64,000 nt of DNA from a bacterium (GCA_043803945.1 JAZDJN010000087.1:160001-224000), one strand, 5' to 3'. Positions 1 through 12,013 are shown, counted from the first letter of the stretch. Made by a program: numbers and translations. Notes: generated by a model from the letters alone, not told the origin.

Positions 1-2
1 TC

Positions 3-1898
3 ATTCAGGATCCGGGAAATGCACTGACGCTCTATGCTGCAGCCTCGGGAAATCCATGCCGAATCTACAAATCGGTCGACTTCGGCAAGAAATGGTCGCT
101 TGTATCGATCATCGATAACAACATCCTTGGCCTCGGCTTCCACCCTCTCAAAAAATCGCTGCTCTACGCCTATTCAAGTACCTCCAATTACGATTCATCG
201 GATCCGCTGGAGCAGTCCAAATTAAAAGCACCTCTGCTTTACACAAGTGCAGATGGCGGAAAGACATGGACATCAAAGGCCCTTCCTCCATTGTATTCCG
301 TGTCGAAAATTCAATTCGATCCTGTGAATTCATCGACCATCCATGCACTTGCTTCTTCAACCGGGCTTGCGGGAAGTGTCTACCTCAAGAGCACCAATGA
401 CGGCGAGACGTGGAATGTGACTGTGATTCTCAACGAACAGTCGTACGCTTCAGCAATGGATGTTGATCCTGATGATCCCAACCACATCATCATCGGAGCA
501 TACAGTTACTCATTCACCACAACAACCAATGTCCTCTATGAAAGCACAGATGGCGGGAGCCATTTCTCTCCGATCACTTTGAAAAACAGATCGATCTCTC
601 CTCCCAATGATATTATGTTCGGCCCCAAGGGCTCCAGGTTGGTATTCTTTTCGATGTATGGAGGAATCTATAAAAGTACCGACCGTGGAAAGAACTGGGA
701 GAAGAACAAGGGAACCATCGATCTGGCACAACGGATATGGATGAATCCTACAAATGCAAATCACATGGTTGGGACACAGTATCGCGGCTTAATGCAAAGC
801 GAAGATGGCGGCGTAACGTGGAAAACGGCTCCTGGAAAATTACTGGGTAATGTTTCCGACGGACTGATTGTCGGAGCGGGAACCAAGCCGGAAATTCTCA
901 TCACCACTTCGGCAGGGATTTTCCGAACAGCGGATTATGGAAAGAGCTGGAAGGCAAGCCATAAGGGAATTGTTGCCACTCAGGTGATGTCGCTGCGTGT
1001 CGCGCCTTCGTCAACTTCTACACTGTTTGCTGCTCTGATGTCAAATGCTGTATATAAGACAAAAGCCGCTGCGGCTGGAACTGTCGGCTGGGAGCAGTTG
1101 CCGGTATTTTATACCTGTGTCAACATCAACGACATCCTCATCGACGAGAAGGACCCGAATAAAATTCTGGCCCTCGAAGGGGGCGGCTGAGGAAACTCAG
1201 GGCTCTTTATGAGCACAAGTGGCGGCGCCACTTGGAAAGAGATTGATAAAACGATGGACGATGGTTATGCACTGGCCCATGGTTCTTTCTATGCTGTGGG
1301 ATGTATGCTCGACGCAGCAACGCAGTCGAGAAAGATGGTTATCTATAAGAGTGTTGATGATGGAAAAACCTGGAAGAAGAATACGCTGGGCGACAAAGAA
1401 GGTTACCTGAAAGCCATTGCTGTGCATCCATCCGACAAGAACATTCTCCTTGCCGGCGGGCAATGCACGGTGCGCGATGGTATTCAGAGCAAGTTGTATA
1501 AAAGTACCAATGCCGGGGAAACCTGGAATGAGATACTTGCCATGGAAATTTCAAAGAACTCTATCACCGCGCTGCAGTATGATCCATTAAAGCCGGAGCG
1601 TGTACTCGCTGCAACACGAACCGGACTGTTCCTCAGCGAAGATGGGGCATCGTCATGGTCGAAGGCGAAGGAGAATATCGCTGTAACATCGTTGGTGGCC
1701 GATGCCAAAAAGCCCGGGCGCTTCTTTGCCGGAACACCAAAAGGTGTGCTGGCCAGCGAGGATGGCGGAAAATCCTGGAGCGAAATGAATAAGGGCTTGA
1801 CGGTAAAATCTGTGCTGTGCCTGGAGTTTGATTCAAAGAATTCTATTCTCTACGCAGGCACCAGCAATGGCGGCGTGATGAGGATGAATCTGAAGTAA
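3..1898 (+). CDS. BNR/Asp-box repeat beta-propeller protein (WD40/YVTN/YCF48-like), 5'-partial, with in-frame TGA at 1188-1190 (possible selenocysteine/read-through)
   Basis: Frame is open from position 3 (IQDPGNALTLYAA...YKSVDFGKKW...YTSADGGKTW). ORFs 291-1190 and 1209-1898 are in the same frame, separated only by TGA GGA AAC TCA GGG CTC TTT. S-x-D-G-G-x-T-W Asp-boxes occur on both sides. Confidence 0.8.
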
Positions 1899-1953
1899 GC
1901 TTGTCTCATGCTGGGAGGGAGCGGTGCTCCCGACCTGGATTTGTTGCGTTCAT

Positions 1954-2159
1954 ATCTAACCGTTCGCTGATACATGAAATCTATGCGAAGCGAACGGTTA
2001 GATGCAGTTTCCCATCCCCTTGCCTCCATAGCCAGATTTAATTACTTTTGGCTTACTACATTTTCTGAACTGTTCGGTTTATTCAGAAGTCCGTCTTTTT
2101 ACAAAGATTAATCACTGGCAAAAGACGGACTTCTCCACACACAACGTAGCGAACGGTTA
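1954..2159. repeat. Cluster of intergenic inverted repeats (REP/REPIN-like)
   Basis: 15-bp IR ATCTAACCGTTCGCT (1954-1968)/AGCGAACGGTTAGAT (1989-2003). 15-bp IR AGAAGTCCGTCTTTT (2085-2099)/AAAAGACGGACTTCT (2120-2134). Extra AGCGAACGGTTA arm at 2148-2159. Confidence 0.7.
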
Positions 2160-2192
2160 AACGCATTCACAAACCAGCAGATTACTCGATCT

Positions 2193-2735
2193 ATGCCAAT
2201 ACGTAGAAGTGCCGCTATCGTTCTCTTCCTTCTTCTTATAACTATCGGAGCTTTTGGACAGCAACCGGATTCCTCAAGTATGGTTCGCTCCTGGCTCGTT
2301 CTTCAAACCGTACCGAGCATAACCCTCTTTTCAAATCCATCGGATATACCGTTTGCATTCGAGTGGGAAGCGGCTCCCCTGCTCTACTCCTTTGGTATGA
2401 CGAAATTGATCTCACCCTGGCATGTATTTATCGTGATGCCCCCGGCACGATTTTCCGGTTCCATTGAACTAAAGGTCACCGGAGCTTTTCATACGCGAAA
2501 AATAGGCTCTTCGTACTTCGGCAGCTCGGTGCAGCTCATCGGACACATCCCGTTGATGGAGCGGGGCGAATATCTCGGAATGAATATCGGTGTCGCCAAA
2601 TACGCTTATGCCGGATCGTCACCCTTCTTCACTGTCATTGGTGTCTCTACGCTCTTTGGATTTGCGGAGTTCAACCTCAAACATAGCACCGATCCGGCAC
2701 TGTGGGTGGGTTCGCTGGATCTTCGTTTCTTTTAA
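2193..2735 (+). CDS. Hypothetical exported protein, possibly a small outer-membrane beta-barrel
   Basis: Signal peptide (AIVLFLLLITIGAFG), alternating amphipathic strands, C-terminal Phe. Confidence 0.6.
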   Translation: MPIRRSAAIVLFLLLITIGAFGQQPDSSSMVRSWLVLQTVPSITLFSNPSDIPFAFEWEAAPLLYSFGMTKLISPWHVFIVMPPARFSGSIELKVTGAFHTRKIGSSYFGSSVQLIGHIPLMERGEYLGMNIGVAKYAYAGSSPFFTVIGVSTLFGFAEFNLKHSTDPALWVGSLDLRFF

Positions 2736-2808
2736 TGGAGAAGATCACTGGTGACATTCTTGCAAAGCCTTCACCACAAAGGGCACTGAGAACACAAAGA
2801 ACATAGAG

Positions 2809-3891
2809 ATGTTTATAAATCCCAAGTTTAAATATCCATTATCTAATCGACGTTCCCCTTTCGCAGTTTGGCGTGCTTGCCCGCCTGCCAATGTGATTTC
2901 TTTTCGACGGGCAGGGCGATTAGAAAATTCGCGAAGGCTTTTCATCGTAAGTAACAGATATGCCATTCGGATATTACTCATTCCTCTCATACTGTTCTCT
3001 CTCTCATTTCAGGGATGCGATTCAATAGCGGGCCGTTTCTTCTCACGCACAGTTGAACGCTTTGGCGAACCTACGCTCGCTATCTCCCACAAAAACTCAA
3101 ATCCAATTCTCTCCAATGTTGAGCTCGCTGTCCTGTGGATCGGACACTCAACCATGCTCATCCAGATACACGATAAAATTTTTCTCACCGATCCTGTCTT
3201 CACGCACACCATTGGCCTCATCTCGGGACGGCAGGTGGAACCCGGCCTCGATCCGGCTTCGCTGACAAAAGTTGATTATGTTTTGATCTCCCATCTCCAT
3301 TTCGACCACTTCAACTTTGGCAGCCTGGACATGCTTCCGAAGCAGGGGTGTCTGGTACTTCCGCCGGGCGGTGCAGCTTATTCACCGGAATTCCATTTTG
3401 CAGAAACGATCGAACTGGAGCAGTGGAAACCGTACGAAGCAGATGGTGTCCGTATCACCGCCGTTCCGGTAAAACACTTCAGCGGACGGTACGGGTTTGA
3501 TGCATGGTGGTCTGGAGACCGCGGTTACACCGGATATATAATCGAATACAAAGGCAAAACCGTTTTCATCGGCGGCGATACAGCGTATAACTCGACCTTG
3601 TTCAAAACGATCGGATCACGCTATACTATCGATCTCGCGTGTCTCCCAATCGCACCGATCGAACCGCGGCAATATATGCAGCGCTTCCACACCGATCCGA
3701 ATGAAGCAATTCGCGTGATGGAGGATCTGGGGGCAAAAGTGATGGTCCCTATACACCATCGCACACTCTTCCTCGGCCTCGAAGCGAAAGAAACATCCGC
3801 ACAGGAACTGCTTCAAACACTGATTCAGCAAAAACGGTATCAAAAGCGAATAAGGATCCTCGACATTGGAGAACAGATCATTCTTGAATAG
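2809..3891 (+). CDS. MBL-fold metallo-hydrolase lipoprotein (NAPE-PLD/RomA-like); true start uncertain, probably near 2947
   Basis: WIGHST, LTDPVF, SHLHFDH, H-FSGR, GDT and PIHH motifs; lipobox FQG-C. Confidence 0.85.
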   Translation: MFINPKFKYPLSNRRSPFAVWRACPPANVISFRRAGRLENSRRLFIVSNRYAIRILLIPLILFSLSFQGCDSIAGRFFSRTVERFGEPTLAISHKNSNPILSNVELAVLWIGHSTMLIQIHDKIFLTDPVFTHTIGLISGRQVEPGLDPASLTKVDYVLISHLHFDHFNFGSLDMLPKQGCLVLPPGGAAYSPEFHFAETIELEQWKPYEADGVRITAVPVKHFSGRYGFDAWWSGDRGYTGYIIEYKGKTVFIGGDTAYNSTLFKTIGSRYTIDLACLPIAPIEPRQYMQRFHTDPNEAIRVMEDLGAKVMVPIHHRTLFLGLEAKETSAQELLQTLIQQKRYQKRIRILDIGEQIILE

Positions 3892-4831
3892 TAAGAGAGT
3901 TGTCGTACTTCCATCTTTCCTCCTGCTCATTTTGCTATTACTATCAGGCTGTGGGCCGCTCAACACAGGTTTAATGAGCCGCTTTCTGGATGGCATGTTC
4001 AACTCGGCTCAGATGGTCAAGCCAACGGTCACTCAACCAATTCTCCCGACGGTCGGCCTGTCTGCTCTCTGGATCGGGCACTCCAGTGTGCTGGTTCAGA
4101 TTGAGGACAAAGTGTTTCTCACCGACCCTGTCTTCTCCAATACCATTGGAATGCTGGCACCACGGGCATACAGCGCAGGCCTCGACCCGCGCTCCATCTC
4201 CAAGGTGGACGTTGTCCTGATCTCACACCTTCATATGGATCACTTTGCGTTTGGAAGCATCGATCAACTTCCAAAACATGGAATGCTCGTGCTGCCTCCG
4301 GGCGGTTCTGTGTACTCGCCTGATTTCGGTTTCAAAGAAACTGTTGAATTAAAGACATGGACTGTGTATGAACAGGATGGTATTCGCATTACAGCCGTGC
4401 CGGTCATGCATTTCAGCGGGCGATATGGATTCGATTCACAGTGGCAAAGCGAACCGGGGTATGGAGGCTACGTTGTAGAATATAAGGGTAGATCGTTCTT
4501 TTATCCCGGCGATACCGGCTACCGCCAAAATTTCTTTCAGGAAATCGGTGAGCGATTCAGAATTGATCTCGCAATTCTTCCGATCGGTCCAGCCGGATCT
4601 GCTGATCGGATTGCATCACGGATTCATGCGGGGCCGCTTGGCGCATTGGAAATTCTCAAGGAGGTCAAAGGAAAGTATATGATTCCGGTACACTATATGG
4701 CTTTCTTTCAGGGGTTTGAGGCAACGCCTACCCGACCAAGAGAGGTTCTTGATAAAACCGTGAAGGAGCGGGGCATGCAGGAGCGTGTCTTCATCCTGGA
4801 GATTGGAGAGCAAAAAATAATAATACCATAA
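3884..4831 (+). CDS. MBL-fold metallo-hydrolase lipoprotein, tandem paralog
   Basis: WIGHSS, LTDPVF, SHLHMDH, HFSGR, GDTGY and PVHY motifs; lipobox LSG-C; TTG start at 3884 with GGAGA upstream. Confidence 0.85.
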   Translation: MNSKRVVVLPSFLLLILLLLSGCGPLNTGLMSRFLDGMFNSAQMVKPTVTQPILPTVGLSALWIGHSSVLVQIEDKVFLTDPVFSNTIGMLAPRAYSAGLDPRSISKVDVVLISHLHMDHFAFGSIDQLPKHGMLVLPPGGSVYSPDFGFKETVELKTWTVYEQDGIRITAVPVMHFSGRYGFDSQWQSEPGYGGYVVEYKGRSFFYPGDTGYRQNFFQEIGERFRIDLAILPIGPAGSADRIASRIHAGPLGALEILKEVKGKYMIPVHYMAFFQGFEATPTRPREVLDKTVKERGMQERVFILEIGEQKIIIP

Positions 4832-4886
4832 TAAGCTGAAATGAAAGAGTAGAAAGGGACAAGAATACGTACACTATGCAGAGAAT

Positions 4887-4956
4887 GCCCCGTAAGGGGC
4901 AGAATGTTTATAGCTTAACCAAATAACGATGAATGATCTCCGTTAGGAGCGAAATA
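4887..4956. repeat. REP-like short palindrome doublet
   Basis: GCCCCGTAAGGGGC (4887-4900) and CTCCGTTAGGAG (4938-4949); related GCCCCACTAAGGGC at 7911. Confidence 0.5.
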
Positions 4957-4970
4957 CTTAAAAGGAAAAT

Positions 4971-5927
4971 TTGGCCATGCAAATATGCATGAGAATGTCT
5001 TCAACAATTATCGCGTTAAGTCTCTTCATACTGTTTACAGTACCGGCAACAGAATCGTTTTCTAAGGAGACTCGAGATCGAACATTGCAGCGTAAACTCG
5101 AGCAGCTTGTGAAGGGATTCAGGGGAGATGTTGGAATATACGTTCGGAATTTGAAGACCGGAAAAAGTGCCGCCATCAATGCCGACTCCCTTTTCCCGGC
5201 AGCAAGCCTTGTGAAGATACCAATTCTTTTTTCTCTCTTCGAGAAAATCGAAAACGGAGAACTGCAGTATGGAGCAACATTGGTATACCGTGATTCTCTT
5301 CTTTATCCTGGAGACGATATTCTCGGAGCATTCAAGGATACAGCAACAATCACCTTGAGCAAGGTGGTAATGTTGACGCTCACAACCAGCGATAATACGG
5401 CGAGCCTCTGGCTGCAGCAACTGGCTGGAACCGGGCTTGCCATCAATGCGTGGCTGGAGAAAAATAATTTCCGCCAGTCGCGTGTGAATTCAAGAACACC
5501 CGGACGGGAAGAGAACCGCAGACAATATGGCTGGGGACAGACCACACCGCGTGAAATGGCGGAGATGCTGGTAATGATTCGCCAGGGACGGGCTATCAGT
5601 AAAGCGGCGAGTGATGAGATGTACCGCTGCCTTTCCCGAACCTATTGGGACCAGGAGGCCTGTTCAGAAATACCTCCGTACATCCATGTTACATCGAAAC
5701 AGGGTGCTGTTGATCAATCGCGGTCAGAAGTTCTTCTTGTTAGTGCACCCTCAGGAGATTATGTGTTTTCTGTTATCACAAAGAACCAGCAGCATACAAG
5801 CTGGAAGGAGGACAACGAAGGATTTGTGTTGTTGCGAAGTGTCTCGAAGCTGCTCTGGAAATACTACGAGCCAAAATCGAAGTGGAAACCCGCAGAGGGG
5901 AAAGAGAAGTACGGGAAAGAATATTAA
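4971..5927 (+). CDS. Serine hydrolase, class A beta-lactamase-like fold (Beta-lactamase2 family)
   Basis: FPAASLVK (SxxK), SDN, TTPREM, KQG (KTG equivalent); signal peptide. Confidence 0.85.
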   Translation: MAMQICMRMSSTIIALSLFILFTVPATESFSKETRDRTLQRKLEQLVKGFRGDVGIYVRNLKTGKSAAINADSLFPAASLVKIPILFSLFEKIENGELQYGATLVYRDSLLYPGDDILGAFKDTATITLSKVVMLTLTTSDNTASLWLQQLAGTGLAINAWLEKNNFRQSRVNSRTPGREENRRQYGWGQTTPREMAEMLVMIRQGRAISKAASDEMYRCLSRTYWDQEACSEIPPYIHVTSKQGAVDQSRSEVLLVSAPSGDYVFSVITKNQQHTSWKEDNEGFVLLRSVSKLLWKYYEPKSKWKPAEGKEKYGKEY

Positions 5928-5974
5928 GGAAGAACATTAGCCGCCGAGACGCCAAGGATATGGTGGGTGTTTTA

Positions 5975-6421
5975 CTAGTACTGCCTAAACTTTGTTTTTG
6001 AGATCCCGCTGAGAGAAAAAAAATAGGATTTCAATGTGGCGATAAATCCAACTGAAAGGGCACAGGTCACAACGATAACCTGGATGATAACTCCGGTAGA
6101 GTTCTCTAATTGCTGAGCATACCACATCAATGCAGTTACGAGAACCATTGGAATGACAAGCTTTCGTTCAAGTTCCCACTCCAATTTCATAGGTAATTCT
6201 TCCCGTTCCTTCTCAATAGTTTTTATAGATGCGATGAGCTGCTGTGATGGTACAACAATAGGAATACTTTGAAGATCCTGATGAATCCTGAGTATCTCTT
6301 CCTTATAGAGTCCACAGTGGGCACACTCTGCCAGGTGGCTTTCCATTTCAGCGGACAAATCCTCAGAGGATTCTGATGCGAGCAAACGATTCAATTGCTC
6401 TTTAAAATCATCACAGGTCAT
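5975..6421 (-). CDS. Zinc-finger (zf-HC2/ZAS) membrane anti-sigma factor
   Basis: MTC...HLAECAHC motif, two C-terminal TM helices, overlaps the sigma stop (ATGA). Confidence 0.85.
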   Translation of the reverse strand: MTCDDFKEQLNRLLASESSEDLSAEMESHLAECAHCGLYKEEILRIHQDLQSIPIVVPSQQLIASIKTIEKEREELPMKLEWELERKLVIPMVLVTALMWYAQQLENSTGVIIQVIVVTCALSVGFIATLKSYFFSLSGISKTKFRQY

Positions 6422-6942
6422 ACCATTACCTTTCTCTTCATAACCATTGTTCTCAATCGCTCTCGGCCTCGATGAAGTGCTGTACCGACTGTACCCACTG
6501 GAATTTCTAAGATCATAGCAATTTCATTATAATCCATTCCTTCAAGATAGAAGAGCGTAATTGCAGACGCTTCACCATCTGGAAGCCGGGCAATGAGATC
6601 TGCCAGTATTTGTCTCTCCTCTTGTTGGATGAGCAGGGTCTCCGGGGTAGCGTGCTCCAGTGGAAGAGACTCTGTGTCCATGACCTGATTATTCTCAAGG
6701 GAAACAACAGGAAGCACTTTTTTTGCCCTTCTCGACAGGCAAATATTTGTGGTAATTTTCCAGATCCAGGTGGAAAGCTGTGCTTCTTGACGAAAATGAG
6801 GAAGCCCTTGATGGACACGGAGAAAGACATCGAATACCGCTTCTTCAGCGTCCAAACAGTTTCCCAACATTCTTAATGCATGGTTATAAACATGTGTAGA
6901 AAAATCATCCACAATATTTTGAAATTCCCTGGAAGCGAGCAC
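6418..6942 (-). CDS. ECF sigma-70 factor
   Basis: DAEEAVFDVFLRV, LSTWIWKITTN (region 2); YNEIAMILEIPVGTVGTALHRGRERL (region 4). Confidence 0.95.
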   Translation of the reverse strand: MLASREFQNIVDDFSTHVYNHALRMLGNCLDAEEAVFDVFLRVHQGLPHFRQEAQLSTWIWKITTNICLSRRAKKVLPVVSLENNQVMDTESLPLEHATPETLLIQQEERQILADLIARLPDGEASAITLFYLEGMDYNEIAMILEIPVGTVGTALHRGRERLRTMVMKRKVMV

Positions 6943-7008
6943 GAGTTATGTCTCACGTATTATTATTAACGCGAACCCATAGTCTGTTCTGAGCTGTTCC
7001 TCCATGAG

Positions 7009-7070
7009 TTAGACTCATCTAATATAGTATTTCTTTCAAGTGAAAGAAAAATAATCTTGATCGAGTCTAA
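7009..7070. promoter_or_regulatory. Back-to-back divergent ECF-type promoters (TGAAAGAAA-N13-GAGTCTAA on each strand)
   Basis: Minus strand 7038-7009 reads TGAAAGAAAtactatattagatGAGTCTAA; plus strand 7041-7070 reads TGAAAGAAAaataatcttgatcGAGTCTAA. Confidence 0.75.
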
Positions 7071-7098
7071 GTACATACACGAAGAAGGAGATTAATCT

Positions 7099-7461
7099 AT
7101 GGAGCTCTTCGCTCAGACTGCACAAATAACAATATTCACAGTTGCTATAACGCTTGCCACAATTTGGGAATATTCGAAACGTGAGCGTATACACAAGGAA
7201 AAAATGCTCTATCTATCGAAACTCACCGAATTGCCTGAAATACTGCCAGATATTGATCTTCCTAAAATATTAATCACAGGCCTCGTAGCGCTTTTTGCGT
7301 TTGCCGGCGGCATTAGTGTTATTGTCATGATGGTTGTGTTCATGTTGTCGACAACGTTCATTGCACTCTATATTGCATGTTCATTATTTATGATTTCACT
7401 CTTTCTTATGCTGATTGTACTCCGGGATTATCAGCTTTACTTAAAAGAACGAAAAGGGTAG
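7099..7461 (+). CDS. Small multi-pass membrane protein (DUF6249-like), likely ECF target
   Basis: AGGAG RBS; TM helix, then KRERIHKEK, then two TM helices. Confidence 0.65.
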   Translation: MELFAQTAQITIFTVAITLATIWEYSKRERIHKEKMLYLSKLTELPEILPDIDLPKILITGLVALFAFAGGISVIVMMVVFMLSTTFIALYIACSLFMISLFLMLIVLRDYQLYLKERKG

Positions 7462-7469
7462 GACACAAT

Positions 7470-7853
7470 ATGGTTACTATACTATTATTTGAAGCATTGA
7501 TCGCGGGCTGGATCCTCATGAGGCAAGAACGGCGCCATGCTATGGAAGAACGGTACTACTTAAAACAATTAGGAATGCCGGACCCGTCACCAAAACCAAC
7601 ACTTCTAGTGTTCGAATCCTGGCTGACAGTGACAACCGGGGCTGCGCTTTTTGTTGGAGGTGTCTGGTTATTATCGATTTTCCTGCCTCATCTCGGGAAA
7701 TTTATGAAGATGCCTCATGGAGCAATATCCTTGTTCATGCCGATTCTTTTGGTGGCAGTTGGTTTTGCGCTTCTATTCCTTGGAATAAAATCTCTCCTCA
7801 CCCACAAAAAAGTCCGTGAAGAATCTTTTTCCCATGTTGAACGTTATCCCTGA
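7470..7853 (+). CDS. Small multi-pass membrane protein, similar architecture to the preceding gene
   Basis: ATG at 7470 after AGGA; TM helix, then RQERRHAMEE, a Pro-rich linker and two TM helices. Confidence 0.65.
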   Translation: MVTILLFEALIAGWILMRQERRHAMEERYYLKQLGMPDPSPKPTLLVFESWLTVTTGAALFVGGVWLLSIFLPHLGKFMKMPHGAISLFMPILLVAVGFALLFLGIKSLLTHKKVREESFSHVERYP

Positions 7854-7910
7854 TTTAGAATGGACAATGAAAACCAGAATTATGGAGAATCATTTCTGCA
7901 AGGAGAAAAT

Positions 7911-7987
7911 GCCCCACTAAGGGCAGTATGTACCGCATTGAACCTTCCGAAGGTTTCTAGGATTAATCGCCGATACCTTCGGAAGGT
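7911..7987. repeat. REP-like palindromes (REPIN-like doublet)
   Basis: AACCTTCCGAAGGTT (7941-7955) inverted against ACCTTCGGAAGGT (7975-7987); GCCCCACTAAGGGC at 7911. Confidence 0.6.
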
Positions 7988-8138
7988 CACGTTTTTCTAA
8001 CCGCAGGCGATGCTAAGGATTTTAACACAATCGCATTTTCCATTTTCCTTTTTGCCTTGGTGATTCTACTGTTTTTCTAATGACTTTTTACCTTTCATTG
8101 CGTACCATCGGTAAGTAAGAATTCATCAAGGATCATCT

Positions 8139-8732
8139 ATGCCTCCGATTCTTTCATTTCTCCTTCTCATCGGCGGCACATATTTATACAGCTCCTGGCA
8201 GATGAGAAGATTGAAAGCACAGCTCACCGGGCAGGAATTCCCCAAAGAGTGGCAGCGAAACCTGTTCAATTATGGAGCATTGATTTCCATTGTCCTCGTG
8301 ATCAACGCGGTGAGCTATATGAAGATGCGAGAATTTGACATGACGATGATGATGTACCAAGAGGTCGTAATGCCGGATGGCACCATTGGTGAACCTACGT
8401 CTTCGGGATTGTTCATCGGACAGCTTGAAGTCGTCGGCGGAACACTCTCCCTGCTTGCCCTGGTCTGGGGAACCATCCAGAGAAAGGTGGAGACACTCAA
8501 TCCAAAGGATCAAACATCCACGCTCCAGGTGATGGCTGCCGTAACACAAAGTCTGCTTGCGCCATTTTGGCTTGCAACTCTCGGCATCGGATCACTGTTC
8601 GGTATCTCTTCTGGTTTCGGATTGAGGGATATTATCCGCCACGCTGAGCTTATCATGGGCCCTCCTCTCATCATGGCACTTGAACTCACCGCTATTTGGG
8701 CATTTCTGAAATTCGGTGTTACACGGGAATAG
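8139..8732 (+). CDS. Hypothetical integral membrane protein
   Basis: About 5 hydrophobic helices; AAGGA RBS. Confidence 0.65.
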   Translation: MPPILSFLLLIGGTYLYSSWQMRRLKAQLTGQEFPKEWQRNLFNYGALISIVLVINAVSYMKMREFDMTMMMYQEVVMPDGTIGEPTSSGLFIGQLEVVGGTLSLLALVWGTIQRKVETLNPKDQTSTLQVMAAVTQSLLAPFWLATLGIGSLFGISSGFGLRDIIRHAELIMGPPLIMALELTAIWAFLKFGVTRE

Positions 8733-8967
8733 AATTTACATTAGCCTTGTGGTACGGTTGGACCGTGCCACCGTACACAAGAGTGTTTATCCACTTCCAT
8801 ATAAATCAACAAAAACAGGCTTCTGACTCTCCGGATTCGCAATTAGTGGCTTGCGCTTCATTCAGCTATTTTGTTTCTTTACTACTACTGCATCCTTCAC
8901 CGAGCATCTTATGAGGGCAAATCCTCATGAGATGACTCCATCTCTCAAACTGTAAGAGGTTATCCTT

Positions 8968-10464
8968 ATGAAAGCTAAAAAACTTTTGATGACGGCATAT
9001 CTTCAACTTGGCTATACGGTCCTTTGCGCCGGCCTTGCTTTCGGGTCCTACAGACTAAGCCGGTACCTGATGAAATGTGCCGGTGGTGGCTGAGGGGCTT
9101 CCCAATTTGGGGGTCTCCCAAACTTCTTTTCAGTATTGTTCACCATTCTTGCCGTTTATTTTGTCCTAGCCGCGATACGTTCTGTATTGCTCTCCATGGC
9201 GGAGGAGAACAAACTTCCTCCTGTCATGCGAACCATCCTCCTGAGCGAGTACAGCCTCATCATTAGTAAATTTCTCGATTGGTTCCGTTTGAAGCGCCGG
9301 CATCTCGTAGTTCGTTTCCTGCTGTGGGGCGTCGGAATACTTTTTCTGGCTCAATTGCTGGCGTCGCTTGTCAGTAATTCGGGGAAGGCTGAGATCATTC
9401 CGAATTACGTTCCATGGGAAGATCCACCGTTAGTCCGTTCTCGGGTGGTAACACTTCCTCTCATGGCATCGAATTCTCCGGAAACATATTTGCCTCATTG
9501 CATTACGCTTGTGGATCAGCTCAAAGCTGCCGGAGCAAAACTTGTGGTTGTCGATTACAGAGGCATTCATCCGGATGTCAACGGTCCAGTATTTGACTAT
9601 ACAAAGCGGCTCATGGAAACCGGTATCGTCATTTTTGCAGTGGAACCTCAATGGCGCGGACTCGAATCGAATTTCCCGTTGGCTGAATTTTCAATCGATG
9701 CCGATGTCGCACGCTATGGCCGCATCCATAGATTTACACCGACCGGTGCCGGGAACCATGGAGATGTTCTCATCGAACTCCTTCGGCGAGCGCATCAATA
9801 TCCCGACAGTATGCGGGTGACCATCAAGAAAGAATTCTTCGCCTTCGGCGACTATGCTTTCCCCTGTGATTCTGAAGGCTCGTTTTATATGGATCTGAAT
9901 AATCTGCGGATTACCTCCGATGCAGAGTTGAATCCGGTTCGGGTCATTGAGAAGCCTACCACCCATGAATTGGACTATTATAGCAGTGGCAATTGGTACA
10001 CACCCGATACCACACGATCACCGCTTCTCAACAAGTATGCAAAACGATATAAAGATAAATTTGTACTGTTGCTGAACGAAAACTTCCCCGAACGGCCATA
10101 CCCATATTTTCTCAGTAGCTGCTATCCGCTCGCGTTTGCATCTCTGCAACAGGGGATGCAACCATTTGTGCAATCGAAGTGGCTGCATTATGGGTTTGCT
10201 ATACTCTTCATGCTTCTGATCGGTGTGGTGTGTTACCGGTTGCGACTGAGCTTCGCCATTCCGTTTGTGCTGATACTCACCCTCGGATCATTCTATGCAA
10301 TCGACTGGCTGCTCTACCGCCAGCACATCTTTGTCCAGATGCTGCCATTAACGTTTTCCATCGTCTTAACAACGATAGTGTTTCCTTTGCTCAAGTTTGC
10401 GTTCGATCATTCTGTACAAAAACAGGCCAGCACAAATACAAATGTCGATTCAATAACACAATAA
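8968..10464 (+). CDS. CHASE2-like membrane sensor protein (498 aa with read-through), in-frame TGA at codon 42 (9091-9093) in C-A-G-G-G-U-G; putative selenoprotein
   Basis: ATG 8968 with AGAGG RBS gives MKAKKLLMTAYLQLGYTVLCAGLAFGSYRLSRYLMKCAGGG*GASQFGGLPNFFSVLFTILAVYF..., in frame with ORF 9136-10464. QLKAAGAKLVVVD is CHASE2-like; three C-terminal TM helices. Confidence 0.75.
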
Positions 10465-10482
10465 TACTCCAAGAAGGTGCGT

Positions 10483-11967
10483 ATGAAAATCGATCACTAT
10501 GTGAAGTCAGCCTATATCCAGTTTGGGTTCTTTCTCGCAAGCGGCGGTATGGCCTACGGCACACACAAACTTGGCCGCTATCTCATGCAGTGCTCCGGCG
10601 GCGGCTGAGGATCTTCCTACTATGGGAGTCTCCCATTCAGCCTCAGAACGTTCTTTATCATTCTCACGGTCTATTTCTTCTTTGCGGCAATTCGTTCACT
10701 ACTCCTTTCACTTGCACGTGCCGGGAAACTGCCTCAATGGATGGAACTGATTCTCATCAGTGAATACAGAATCATTCTTACGAATTTTCTCAACTGGTGC
10801 AGGCGGCAGCAGCGAAAACTCTGGGTCCAGTATGTATGCTGGAGTGTGGTCATCGTAGTCTTTGCTGTGAGTATTGCAACGACTGTCAGGAACAGGAAAG
10901 TCGGCCGGTATGAACATACCGAAAGCATCGCTCTCTGGCCTGACCAACCCATCATGAACCCCTCCCTGATGAGTATCGATGTTTATGACTGCACCAATGA
11001 TGAGGCATATCTCGCTAACTGTCTCGACATGGTCGAGCAATTAAAGCAGGCGGGTACAAAAGCCGTTGTGGTCGATTGCAGATATATTTACCCGTTGGCC
11101 AGTCCCCGCATTACCGAGTATTACCGATCACTCCATGAAACCGGCGTGGTGATTTTTGGCGTAGACGGAGACTGGAGGCCAATTGATACCAATTTCACCG
11201 CTGTTGAAGTTACCGCCAATTTCGACTTGACCCGCTATGGACGAATCCACCGCTTTCTCGCAAGCGGGTATGGCGGATACCCCGACCTCCTCTTTGAGTT
11301 GCTCAGAAGACATCAGGGATATTCAAAGAATGTTTCGTTTACCGTGAAAAAGGGAATTGCTCAGCTTGGCAACTATACGATTCCTCTTGATAAAGATGAT
11401 TCATTCTCCATGGATATTGACTCCAGAAGAATCGTGGCGTATGAAAAGGTGAGTCCTGTGTATGCCATCATGAGCATAAAAACGGGTAAGCTGGAATATC
11501 ACGGATGGAATTCCTACAACGTTCCCGATCCGAAGGAAAAGCCTCTCCTTGAAACATTTGGCAAACGGTTCAAGGATAAATATGTCATGATCACGAATCA
11601 AAGTAGGTATAACTATAGTATCAACAGTAGTGAGTATGGAAAAATTTATCCTGTTGCATTTGAGAACCTGTTGGCGCACGACACCTTTTTGCCGAAACCG
11701 TGGCTAGAGTACGTCGCTATGGGTCTCTTCCTGTTGCTCTGCGCCACCGCGTGCACATGGCTGCGGTTCAGTTATGCTGTACCCTTAGTTCTTGTTCTCT
11801 ATGGTGGATCGGCATATGTGGTTGACTATCTGCAATTTTTCCAGCACTGGTATTTTCCCGGTGCAGCGTTCAACAATGCGGCAATCGCCTCTTCAATTCT
11901 TTTTCCATTATTACGCTTTCTTGCCGATCACAGGAACAACGAGGAACATCATCCGACGCCCCACTAA
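10483..11967 (+). CDS. CHASE2-like membrane sensor paralog (494 aa with read-through), in-frame TGA at codon 42 (10606-10608) in C-S-G-G-G-U-G; putative selenoprotein
   Basis: ATG 10483 with GAAGG RBS gives MKIDHYVKSAYIQFGFFLASGGMAYGTHKLGRYLMQCSGGG*GSSYYGSLPFSLRTFFIILTVYFFFAAIRSLLLSLARAGKLPQWMELILISEY, in frame with ORF 10741-11967. QLKQAGTKAVVVD and RYGRIHRF are shared with the paralog. Confidence 0.75.
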
Positions 11968-11984
11968 CCAAAAGTAAATGCAGC

Positions 11985-12013
11985 CGAGCCGTACTTTTCA
12001 TGGTTACGGCTCG
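11985..12013. terminator. Hairpin between convergent genes (putative terminator)
   Basis: CGAGCCGTA / TACGGCTCG 9-bp inverted repeat. Confidence 0.5.

Follow-up and report, generated by a model that had tools for sequence, protein, structure and literature searches.

Predicted selenocysteine codons in an exported beta-propeller family and a membrane protein family, both apparently undescribed

A 64,000-nucleotide stretch of a bacterial genome (GCA_043803945.1, JAZDJN010000087.1:160001-224000; G000:C87:160001-224000 in our numbering and hereafter the window) contains three genes that are each interrupted by one in-frame TGA in a glycine-rich context. One gene codes for a tandem beta-propeller protein, with two further copies just upstream of the window, and the other two code for membrane proteins. 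The best reading of the sequence comparisons is that the five GGN-TGA-GG sites in these genes are real and very probably encode selenocysteine (Sec; U in protein motifs). UGA would be decoded by the ordinary bacterial route, using tRNA-Sec, SelA, SelB, and SelD, and a hairpin located within the gene, shortly after each UGA, would direct the decoding. The first family is predicted to be an exported, GH74-like tandem beta-propeller with Sec in a glycine-rich loop (E-G-x-G-U-G) and an invariant Cys 24 residues before it. The second is predicted to be a membrane protein that spans the bilayer several times, with Sec in a C-x-G-G-G-U-G loop inserted between its first two helices. These are two selenoprotein families that are apparently undescribed, and an earlier description of either is possible.

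The three TGAs in the window are on the plus strand at 1188–1190 (propeller gene, GGG GGC GGC TGA GGA), 9091–9093 (membrane gene 1, GGT GGT GGC TGA GGG), and 10606–10608 (membrane gene 2, GGC GGC GGC TGA GGA). In every case the same reading frame stays open over long stretches before and after the TGA. These positions and their Gly-Gly-Gly-stop-Gly contexts had been given in an original prediction made from the window sequence alone, and re-reading the window returned the same codons. The genes at 9091 and 10606 are paralogues (38% identity, one TGA each), so the three sites represent two independent cases and not three. Across the whole genome and in all frames, 39 of 226,239 TGA triplets read GGN-GGN-TGA-GG. 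The context occurs in seven of the 7,905 genomic TGAs that are flanked on each side by 40 or more open codons, and five of these seven are on contig C87, in the three propeller and two membrane genes. The remaining two, on contigs C69 and C16, look like chance occurrences in non-coding frames. TGAs that close frames of at least 200 codons have this context in four of 1,303 cases, three of which are the propeller genes. A check on enrichment of the context had been part of the original prediction, and by these counts the context is rare in the genome. A simple codon-usage ranking of read-through candidates was too noisy to define a selenoproteome and served only to list candidates on C87.

TGA is otherwise an ordinary stop in this genome. 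The 3,637 frames of at least 200 codons end in TAA (1,564), TGA (1,303), or TAG (770), and tRNA-Trp has anticodon CCA, in agreement with the earlier statement that the genome is not recoded. Anticodon UCA was found in one of 47 tRNAs, which is tRNA-Sec, and the glycine tRNAs have anticodons CCC, GCC, and UCC. A reassignment of UGA to glycine, as in genetic code 25, was considered and rejected on two grounds: there is no UCA tRNA-Gly among the 47 tRNAs, and TGA closes over a thousand of the long frames. The tRNA-Sec scored 62.9 bits, above the Rfam cut-off, and was called as tRNA-SeC (anticodon tca) by ARAGORN. Genes for selA, selB, and selD were identified (C87 116.5–122 kb), and selD itself holds one TGA. 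With tRNA-Sec at 129.5 kb, the set occupies 116.5–129.6 kb of C87, 30–45 kb upstream of the window. The original prediction had also named sel genes and tRNA-Sec as something to look for, and all four are on the same contig as the interrupted genes.

The propeller gene of the window (P0004, 685 aa) spans 3..1898 on the plus strand, starts 160 nt before the window at G000:C87:159841, and is the third of three paralogues. Its TGA corresponds to U450 of the full protein and U396 of the part inside the window. The other two copies lie upstream, at distances of 4 and 11 kb from the window, and all three read ALEGGG-U-GNSGL. Pfam matches to the protein are Sortilin-Vps10, BNR, and PSII_BNR repeats. 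The NCBIfam model NF045728 (F510_1955 family glycosylhydrolase) was matched with 192.1 bits against a cut-off of 175, a score that is summed over seven stretches of a 246-position repeat profile and that says BNR repeats, not orthology. An AlphaFold (AF2) model built from a 10-sequence alignment had a predicted local distance difference test score (pLDDT) of 85.2 and a predicted template modeling score (pTM) of 0.83. The best PDB matches of this model, found with Foldseek, were approximately 20 GH74 xyloglucanase chains (E 2.7e-25 to 1e-22, TM 0.59–0.66, 15–18% identity). Both the model and these matches have the two seven-bladed beta-propellers forming a cleft that are a feature of GH74.

In the model, the Sec loop (E-G-G-G-U-G-N-S) connects strands 442–446 and 453–458 of one blade. 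C426 is just ahead of strand 429–434 in the same blade as U450, and the two residues may be close enough to bond. An alignment of 17 sequences revealed an invariant Cys 24 residues before Sec, an invariant Sec column, and an invariant S-T-x-G-G-x-x-W following it, with a nearly invariant E-G directly before Sec. In the full-length alignment, the invariant residues that are not structural parts of the repeat are Y109, C426, E446, and U450. The type IX secretion system (T9SS) sorting domain Por_Secre_tail (cut-off 27 bits) was identified in P0006 (35.1 bits), L036 (31.5), L054 (36.2), and L053 (27.0), always after the TGA, and all four have an N-terminal signal peptide before the TGA (signal peptides were judged by eye). 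The window copy P0004 and P0005 end without this domain. Many members of the propeller family therefore appear to be T9SS cargo that is secreted or held on the cell surface.

The TGA is conserved well beyond the window. A 181-residue query around it was searched in 86 genomes of the same taxonomic family and gave 10 matches with exactly one TGA (three in G000, four in G097, two in G098, and one in G099), as well as one weak match without a TGA (G095, 28% identity). In a scan of one genome per species, the best 20 of 80 loci were examined. Six of these 20 have TGA at the aligned column, from two Ca. Fermentibacteraceae, one WOR-3, one Zixibacteria, and two other bacteria; 11 are generic BNR proteins in which the Sec column is occupied by R, V, T, F, L, Y, K, or A, and three are unaligned there. 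One locus (L052) has two tandem propeller copies, both with TGA. A metagenome scan covered 28 loci, and the 14 that matched the motif pattern comprise 13 with TGA and one with GGA (L132). In total, 30 propeller genes have TGA at the column, one has a Gly codon, and none has a Cys codon. They share 27%–60% protein identity and belong to at least four phylum-level groups. The motif had been predicted to be lineage-specific, which does not fit the propeller family given that G-U-G occurs across these groups.

DNA from another sample retains the same codon. A contig from run X3 (freshwater sediment, ~91% identical) bridges 1064–1258 with no change at 1188–1190. Of the 23 differences listed downstream of the TGA, 17 affect the third codon position when the read-through frame is used (counted by hand). 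Contigs from X3 cover 1064–1617 of the window, indicating that relatives of the organism are present in other samples. A contig from an RNA library (X1) covers only 1290–1498, which is short of the TGA; as such libraries may also contain DNA, this contig is not taken as a sign of transcription. Other runs gave a 38-nt partial match (X5) or no match to the propeller gene (X6).

These patterns bear on whether the stops are real. The original prediction had offered this as an alternative, in which polypeptides would end in Gly-Gly-Gly. The downstream parts would then be separate genes or dead remnants, and pseudogenes or sequencing errors are further versions of this reading. Public protein sets do present the genes this way, as gene callers split them at the TGA (P0007, P0008, P0009, P0180, P0182, and P0185, with P0009, P0182, and P0185 ending in EG.G), and the propeller gene of the window has an ATG seven codons after the TGA. 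Most relatives, however, have no start codon near the TGA (e.g., ...U-GNAELFKSTDGGSVW), and all 30 of these divergent genes share the TGA, with invariant residues upstream and downstream of it. Termination there would split a blade between two of its strands and would detach the signal peptide from the T9SS sorting domain. Downstream of the TGA, substitutions favor third codon positions, as expected under purifying selection, and the independent DNA contig keeps the TGA. Because the TGA lies within a blade and between the signal peptide and the sorting domain, with invariant residues on both sides and third-position bias after it, one polypeptide is needed, and we consider real stops extremely unlikely.

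The distribution of TGA-propeller genes follows that of SelA. Five of the 86 family genomes have SelA above the cut-off (G000, G094, G097, G098, and G099). TGA-propeller genes are present in four of these five versus none of the 81 SelA-negative genomes, and a distance of 2 kb separates selA from the propeller gene in G098. SelA was also identified in all five distant propeller-bearing genomes (G102–G106), and thus in nine of nine host genomes tested. The patchy occurrence of SelA in the family suggests that Sec use and the genes that depend on it may be transferred or lost as a unit.

Two small hairpins follow the propeller UGA. The first (1202..1214, plus strand; GCUC/GAGC with a 5-nt loop) is paired in 98.5% of cells across 17 sequences. 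Its stem is nearly invariant, with Leu always CTC and Ser always AGC in 10 sequences (A1), so covariation says little about it. The second is the proposed selenocysteine insertion sequence (SECIS), which spans 1216..1234 on the plus strand, starts 26 nt after the UGA, and has an 8-bp stem (1216–1223/1227–1234) with a GGC loop. The region after the UGA folds at −21.8 kcal/mol (z −4.06). Among the 17 sequences, 97.1% of cells in the proposed SECIS are paired, the loop is GGN, and four of the eight pairs have compensatory changes (e.g., A-U/G-C, G-C/C-G/A-U, and U-A/C-G). The two-helix structure has 29 cells with double changes, its score was reached in none of 500 shuffles, and slid registers were only 27%–39% paired. 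The stem coincides with the codons around G-G of the next Asp-box (S-T-S-G-G-A-T-W), in which residues are paired as antisense codons: S..T (AGU/ACU), T..S (ACU/AGU), and D..V (GAC/GUC). As a control, 10 full genes were compared at every Asp-box. The Asp-box after the UGA has 7–8 of 8 pairs, and the 70 other Asp-boxes have a mean of 3.49 and a maximum of 7. The SECIS of the propeller family would thus be the mRNA of an Asp-box, with flanking codons picked for mutual complementarity.

Shorter hairpins are proposed for the membrane genes, each starting 12 nt after the UGA on the plus strand. In gene 1 the hairpin is UUUGGG/CCCAAA with loop GGUCU (9106..9122), and in gene 2 it is (U)AUGGG/CCCAU(U) with loop AGUCU (10621..10637). 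The family consensus is a 6-bp stem with loop N-G-U-N-U; 95.8% of cells are paired across four sequences, and two of six pairs have compensatory changes. Conserved hairpins downstream of TGAs that are kept in both orthologues and paralogues agree with the earlier argument that these are not independent nonsense mutations.

Several observations weigh against selenocysteine at these sites. The membrane hairpin is represented by four sequences only, 30 of 500 shuffles reach its score, and the fold z values for the two genes are +0.72 and −0.33. No Rfam family, including any SECIS family, was matched in a gathering-threshold scan of the window. Bacterial SECIS elements have a G in the apical loop, which is 16–37 nt from the UGA, and such a G is present in the loops of both hairpins proposed here. 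In the propeller element, however, the loop is GGN, only 3 nt long and 34 nt from the UGA, unlike that of the textbook E. coli fdhF element. One genome, G094, is SelA-positive and 95% complete, yet has no TGA-propeller gene (profile A5). Because related genomes are not independent of one another, the co-occurrence counts make the support look stronger than it is and are descriptive only. Homologs with Cys in place of Sec usually mark a selenoprotein family, yet no Cys form was identified at the Sec column in the loci examined, and a word-index search returned only truncated forms and the Gly form. An exhaustive profile search (A5; 104,936 matches) was swamped by repeats, and its best 150 matches are all large multi-repeat BNR proteins that are uninformative on Cys forms. 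A pattern search for a Cys form among these 150 found only P0071 and P0159, which are unrelated Asp-box neighbors that contain C, and none ending in EG.G. Finally, the L132 gene has GGA (Gly) at the Sec column (L132:3672) and is the source of public protein P0181. Gly can therefore occupy this position, although the N-terminal half of that gene is out of frame, which points to a copy in decay or to a mistake in the assembly.

The Gly codon in L132, together with a loop that is otherwise all glycine and has no observed Cys form, would be consistent with UGA being read through without Sec machinery, with Gly, Trp, or Cys inserted by a near-cognate or suppressor tRNA and the glycine-rich context stimulating the process. 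We regard this as very unlikely. Only tRNA-Sec has anticodon UCA, tRNA-Trp has CCA, and TGA closes 1,303 long frames. TGA genes are restricted to SelA-positive hosts (9 of 9 tested, versus 0 of 81 SelA-negative family genomes), a conserved and covarying hairpin is present at the spacing expected for SelB, and the GGA variant is in a gene with an out-of-frame half.

Selenocysteine at these codons leaves the shared Gly-U-Gly wording to be explained. The original prediction had proposed both selenocysteine and a shared recoding context or read-through signal (GGY-GGC-TGA-GG). The selenocysteine part has gained support from the machinery, the conserved TGA, the co-occurrence with SelA, and the hairpins, and the shared signal has not. 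GGN is present on both sides of the TGA in 27 of 30 propeller genes and all four membrane genes, with third bases that vary freely (GGC, GGT, GGG before and after, and GGA after). Propeller paralogues in G097 and G098 with the same hairpin read GGT TGA GGG (A-G-U-G), GGG TGA AGC (G-U-S), and CAG TGA ACG (Q-U-T). Other selenoprotein genes of the same island read GGT TGA GCC (selD), and ACC TGA CTG and AAG TGA AGA (thioredoxin-fold genes). Because contexts vary, and because the hairpins of the two families differ both in sequence and in their spacing from the UGA, the motif points to a glycine-rich protein loop around Sec. We read the shared wording as a protein-level loop that would present the selenol next to a partner Cys and not as a recoding signal.

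The flank could alternatively act in the mRNA as a recoding helper on top of the hairpin, either by weakening termination by RF2 or by favoring tRNA-Sec, which would explain why two unrelated families share G-U-G. The high proportion of genes with GGN on both sides, the GGT before the TGA of selD, and the rarity of the context at ordinary stops (1 of about 1,300) are in line with a helper. The free third bases are instead expected under selection on glycine and not on bases, the same hairpin accompanies CAG TGA ACG or GGG TGA AGC in three propeller genes, and the adjoining thioredoxin-fold genes use neither glycine codon. A helper role is therefore unlikely in our judgment. As all Gly codons are GGN, the protein and RNA levels are not fully separable from sequence alone.

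The membrane genes are tandem paralogues on the plus strand. Gene 1 (8968..10464) codes for P0002 (498 aa, U42, C-A-G-G-G-U-G-A-S) and gene 2 (10483..11967) for P0003 (494 aa, U42, C-S-G-G-G-U-G-S-S). Neither protein has a Pfam family above the cut-off. CHASE2 (PF05226) was matched by P0003 only, with 13.2 bits against a cut-off of 26.3 (E 0.068), and nothing was found for P0002. CHASE2 identity was rejected for this family, as the score is far below the cut-off. Homologs with one TGA at the same place were identified in G098 (YLECAGGG-U-GRAEFGRVP) and G099 (YLECEGGG-U-GSAVFGRVP), so the Sec-containing family has four genes in three genomes so far. The C-x-GGG-U-G segment is missing from paralogues without Sec (in G000, G018, G095, G097, and G098) and represents an insertion into the loop that links helices 1 and 2. 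The structural model (pLDDT 73.6) has helices at 2–38 and 52–79, a disordered Sec loop at 36–50, two more helices, an alpha/beta domain (~160–403), and three C-terminal transmembrane helices. No PDB fold matched this model at E ≤ 0.001. A K/R-rich segment after the second helix suggests, by the positive-inside rule, an outward orientation of both the Sec loop and the large domain. P0002 was not found in the five distant propeller-bearing genomes, an empty answer that shows nothing by itself, and a homologous-protein search with P0002 returned only the truncated product of the window itself.

All of these genes belong to a ~55-kb selenium island (G000:C87:116500-171000) that reaches into window positions 1–12000 and holds seven selenoprotein genes of three kinds after the sel genes. 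The order is an AhpC/TSA-fold gene with FEHT-U-LEC (C87 148.5 kb; L016:5935-6825), propeller 1 (150.1 kb), an AhpC/TSA-fold gene with a signal peptide and HFWKSK-U-REC (155.2 kb; L016:12981-13514), propeller 2 (157.1 kb), propeller 3 (161.2 kb), and the two membrane genes (169.1 and 170.6 kb). Both AhpC/TSA-fold products match PF00578 across their TGA (71.3 and 65.5 bits, above the cut-off; profile positions 2–122 of 124), and Sec takes the place of the first Cys in CxxC (U-x-x-C; T-U-x-x-C and K-U-x-E-C). The same two exported AhpC/TSA-fold genes flank the TGA-propeller genes in G000, G097, G098, and G099. Between propellers 2 and 3 is a gene for a 636-aa protein with a thioredoxin-like domain (P0029; L016:15859-17769). 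This C-terminal domain has W-S-E-P-S in place of the expected C-x-x-C, and from its sequence P0029 looks like a redox-dead relative that would occupy the slot of a redox partner.

We infer that both families are redox or metal-handling envelope proteins and that the propeller works with the flanking U-x-x-C selenoproteins. A broader and more doubtful possibility is that the island encodes one envelope selenium redox system. It would combine a secreted or surface GH74-like propeller whose active site has an obligate Sec (having no Cys form in nature) paired with an invariant Cys, two exported thioredoxin-fold U-x-x-C recyclers of that propeller, and a SECIS derived from an Asp-box. In this lineage it would also include membrane proteins whose outward C-x-GGG-U-G loop transfers reducing power, or a selenium or metal ligand, across the membrane.

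Recoding of UGA to Sec is well established, and thioredoxin-fold U-x-x-C selenoproteins are a known kind. As in SelB/SECIS-dependent genes (fdhF, selD, and thioredoxin-fold U-x-x-C genes), the genes described here have an in-frame UGA, a downstream hairpin in the coding sequence, a full sel set, and a candidate partner Cys. In the selD of this genome, the UGA is followed by a stem that is rich in GC and capped by a GGU triloop, comparable to the propeller hairpin (by eye, with no fold run). The genes described here differ from known ones in their folds, as neither a GH74-like double propeller nor an orphan membrane protein of this kind is known to carry Sec. In addition, no Cys homolog was found, the proposed SECIS of the propeller family is formed from an Asp-box repeat, and many propeller members are T9SS cargo.

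GH74 catalytic residues are presumably an Asp pair in two cleft loops. GH74 xyloglucanases (6p2n, 5fkq, and 2cn3) resemble the propeller family in their tandem seven-bladed propellers and Asp-box repeats (profile matches, E 1e-37 to 1e-27) but have only 15%–18% identity to it, and their loop motifs ARTDIGGAYR and SALGDLGGF were not recognized in it. The propeller consensus has LYAAxYGYPxxIFKSTD near the first motif and ALEGxG-U-G at the apparent second, as read by eye and not by structural alignment. HMMER/PDB profile alignments to GH74 are out of register due to the repeats, with catalytic-loop motifs not recognizable in the consensus, and no glycoside hydrolase activity can be assumed. The membrane family resembles CHASE2-type sensors in having one or more N-terminal helices, a large domain inferred to be extracytoplasmic, and three C-terminal transmembrane helices. 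Unlike these sensors, it has no output domain, and its Sec loop is an insertion that is absent from the paralogues without Sec.

A comparable arrangement in the literature is the SAO locus (Haft and Gwadz, 10.1101/2022.07.06.499078), which also clusters different selenoprotein genes, including membrane, exported, and thioredoxin-like ones, with database entries typically truncated at the Sec codon. It differs in having CU dipeptides, versus E-G-x-G-U-G and C-x-GGG-U-G here, and in its families and taxa. The section headings of that paper name no propeller and no such membrane family. Searches of the accessible text of PMC12013277, PMC13326102, PMC9312934, and PMC13188914 by term gave nothing relevant to either family. 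In the accessible text of a 2026 review with a family table, the terms searched revealed no T9SS-borne selenoprotein and no Sec-bearing glycoside-hydrolase-like fold, and the only G-U-G motif in that text is in a short selenobacteriocin peptide. Across the literature searched, with supplementary family lists outside its scope, there was no BNR, propeller, GH74-like, or T9SS selenoprotein and none resembling the membrane family.

According to the deep-Sep paper, all known selenoproteins now seem to have Cys homologs, and its authors note that their method may miss families without them (PMC12013277). Selenoprotein catalogs are mostly built on Cys/Sec pairs, and a widespread family with only Sec would be a blind spot. 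All of the genes described here are split or truncated in public protein sets and are therefore mis-annotated wherever they occur. The interest lies in two apparently new envelope selenoprotein families, the propeller one widespread and so far without a Cys form, inside a conserved cluster of three selenoprotein genes. Their location is unusual, as the type IX system would deliver selenoproteins to the cell surface or beyond it, and Sec would sit on a glycoside-hydrolase-like fold. The overlap of Asp-box and SECIS would be a clean example of dual coding, in which the residues flanking G-G are picked as antisense codon pairs.

Further in-frame TGAs were observed near propeller genes in other genomes. 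In a WOR-3-like clade, the gene before the propeller codes for a protein that has a T9SS tail and an in-frame TGA within AHT-C-U-GAS, a motif with a C-U dipeptide. This gene is at L053:5-1933 and also in L132, L133, L135, L138, and L139 (~960–980), and the TGA is kept in these six loci, making the protein a candidate for another selenoprotein family. The gene after the propeller in the same clade (L132:4950, L135:4844, and L139:4857) has a TGA in EEFYQET-U-P[TS]C, a U-x-x-C motif followed by ~300 codons. On the minus strand of L165 (G098:C28), at ~16106, the motif VDFFSPT-U-GGC spans another in-frame TGA, which is preceded by 63 codons and followed by 450. This site is close to selA, selD, and the propeller gene of G098 and possibly belongs to a further thioredoxin-like selenoprotein. 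In G000 itself, the plus strand of contig C85 at ~24187 has an in-frame TGA in EDAVIEGG-U-CIGFDPQV (GGC TGA TGC) with 118 and 226 open codons before and after it and good codon scores on both sides. This site is 2.5 kb from a membrane paralogue without Sec (C85:26694-27884) and is a possible further selenoprotein with Gly before Sec.

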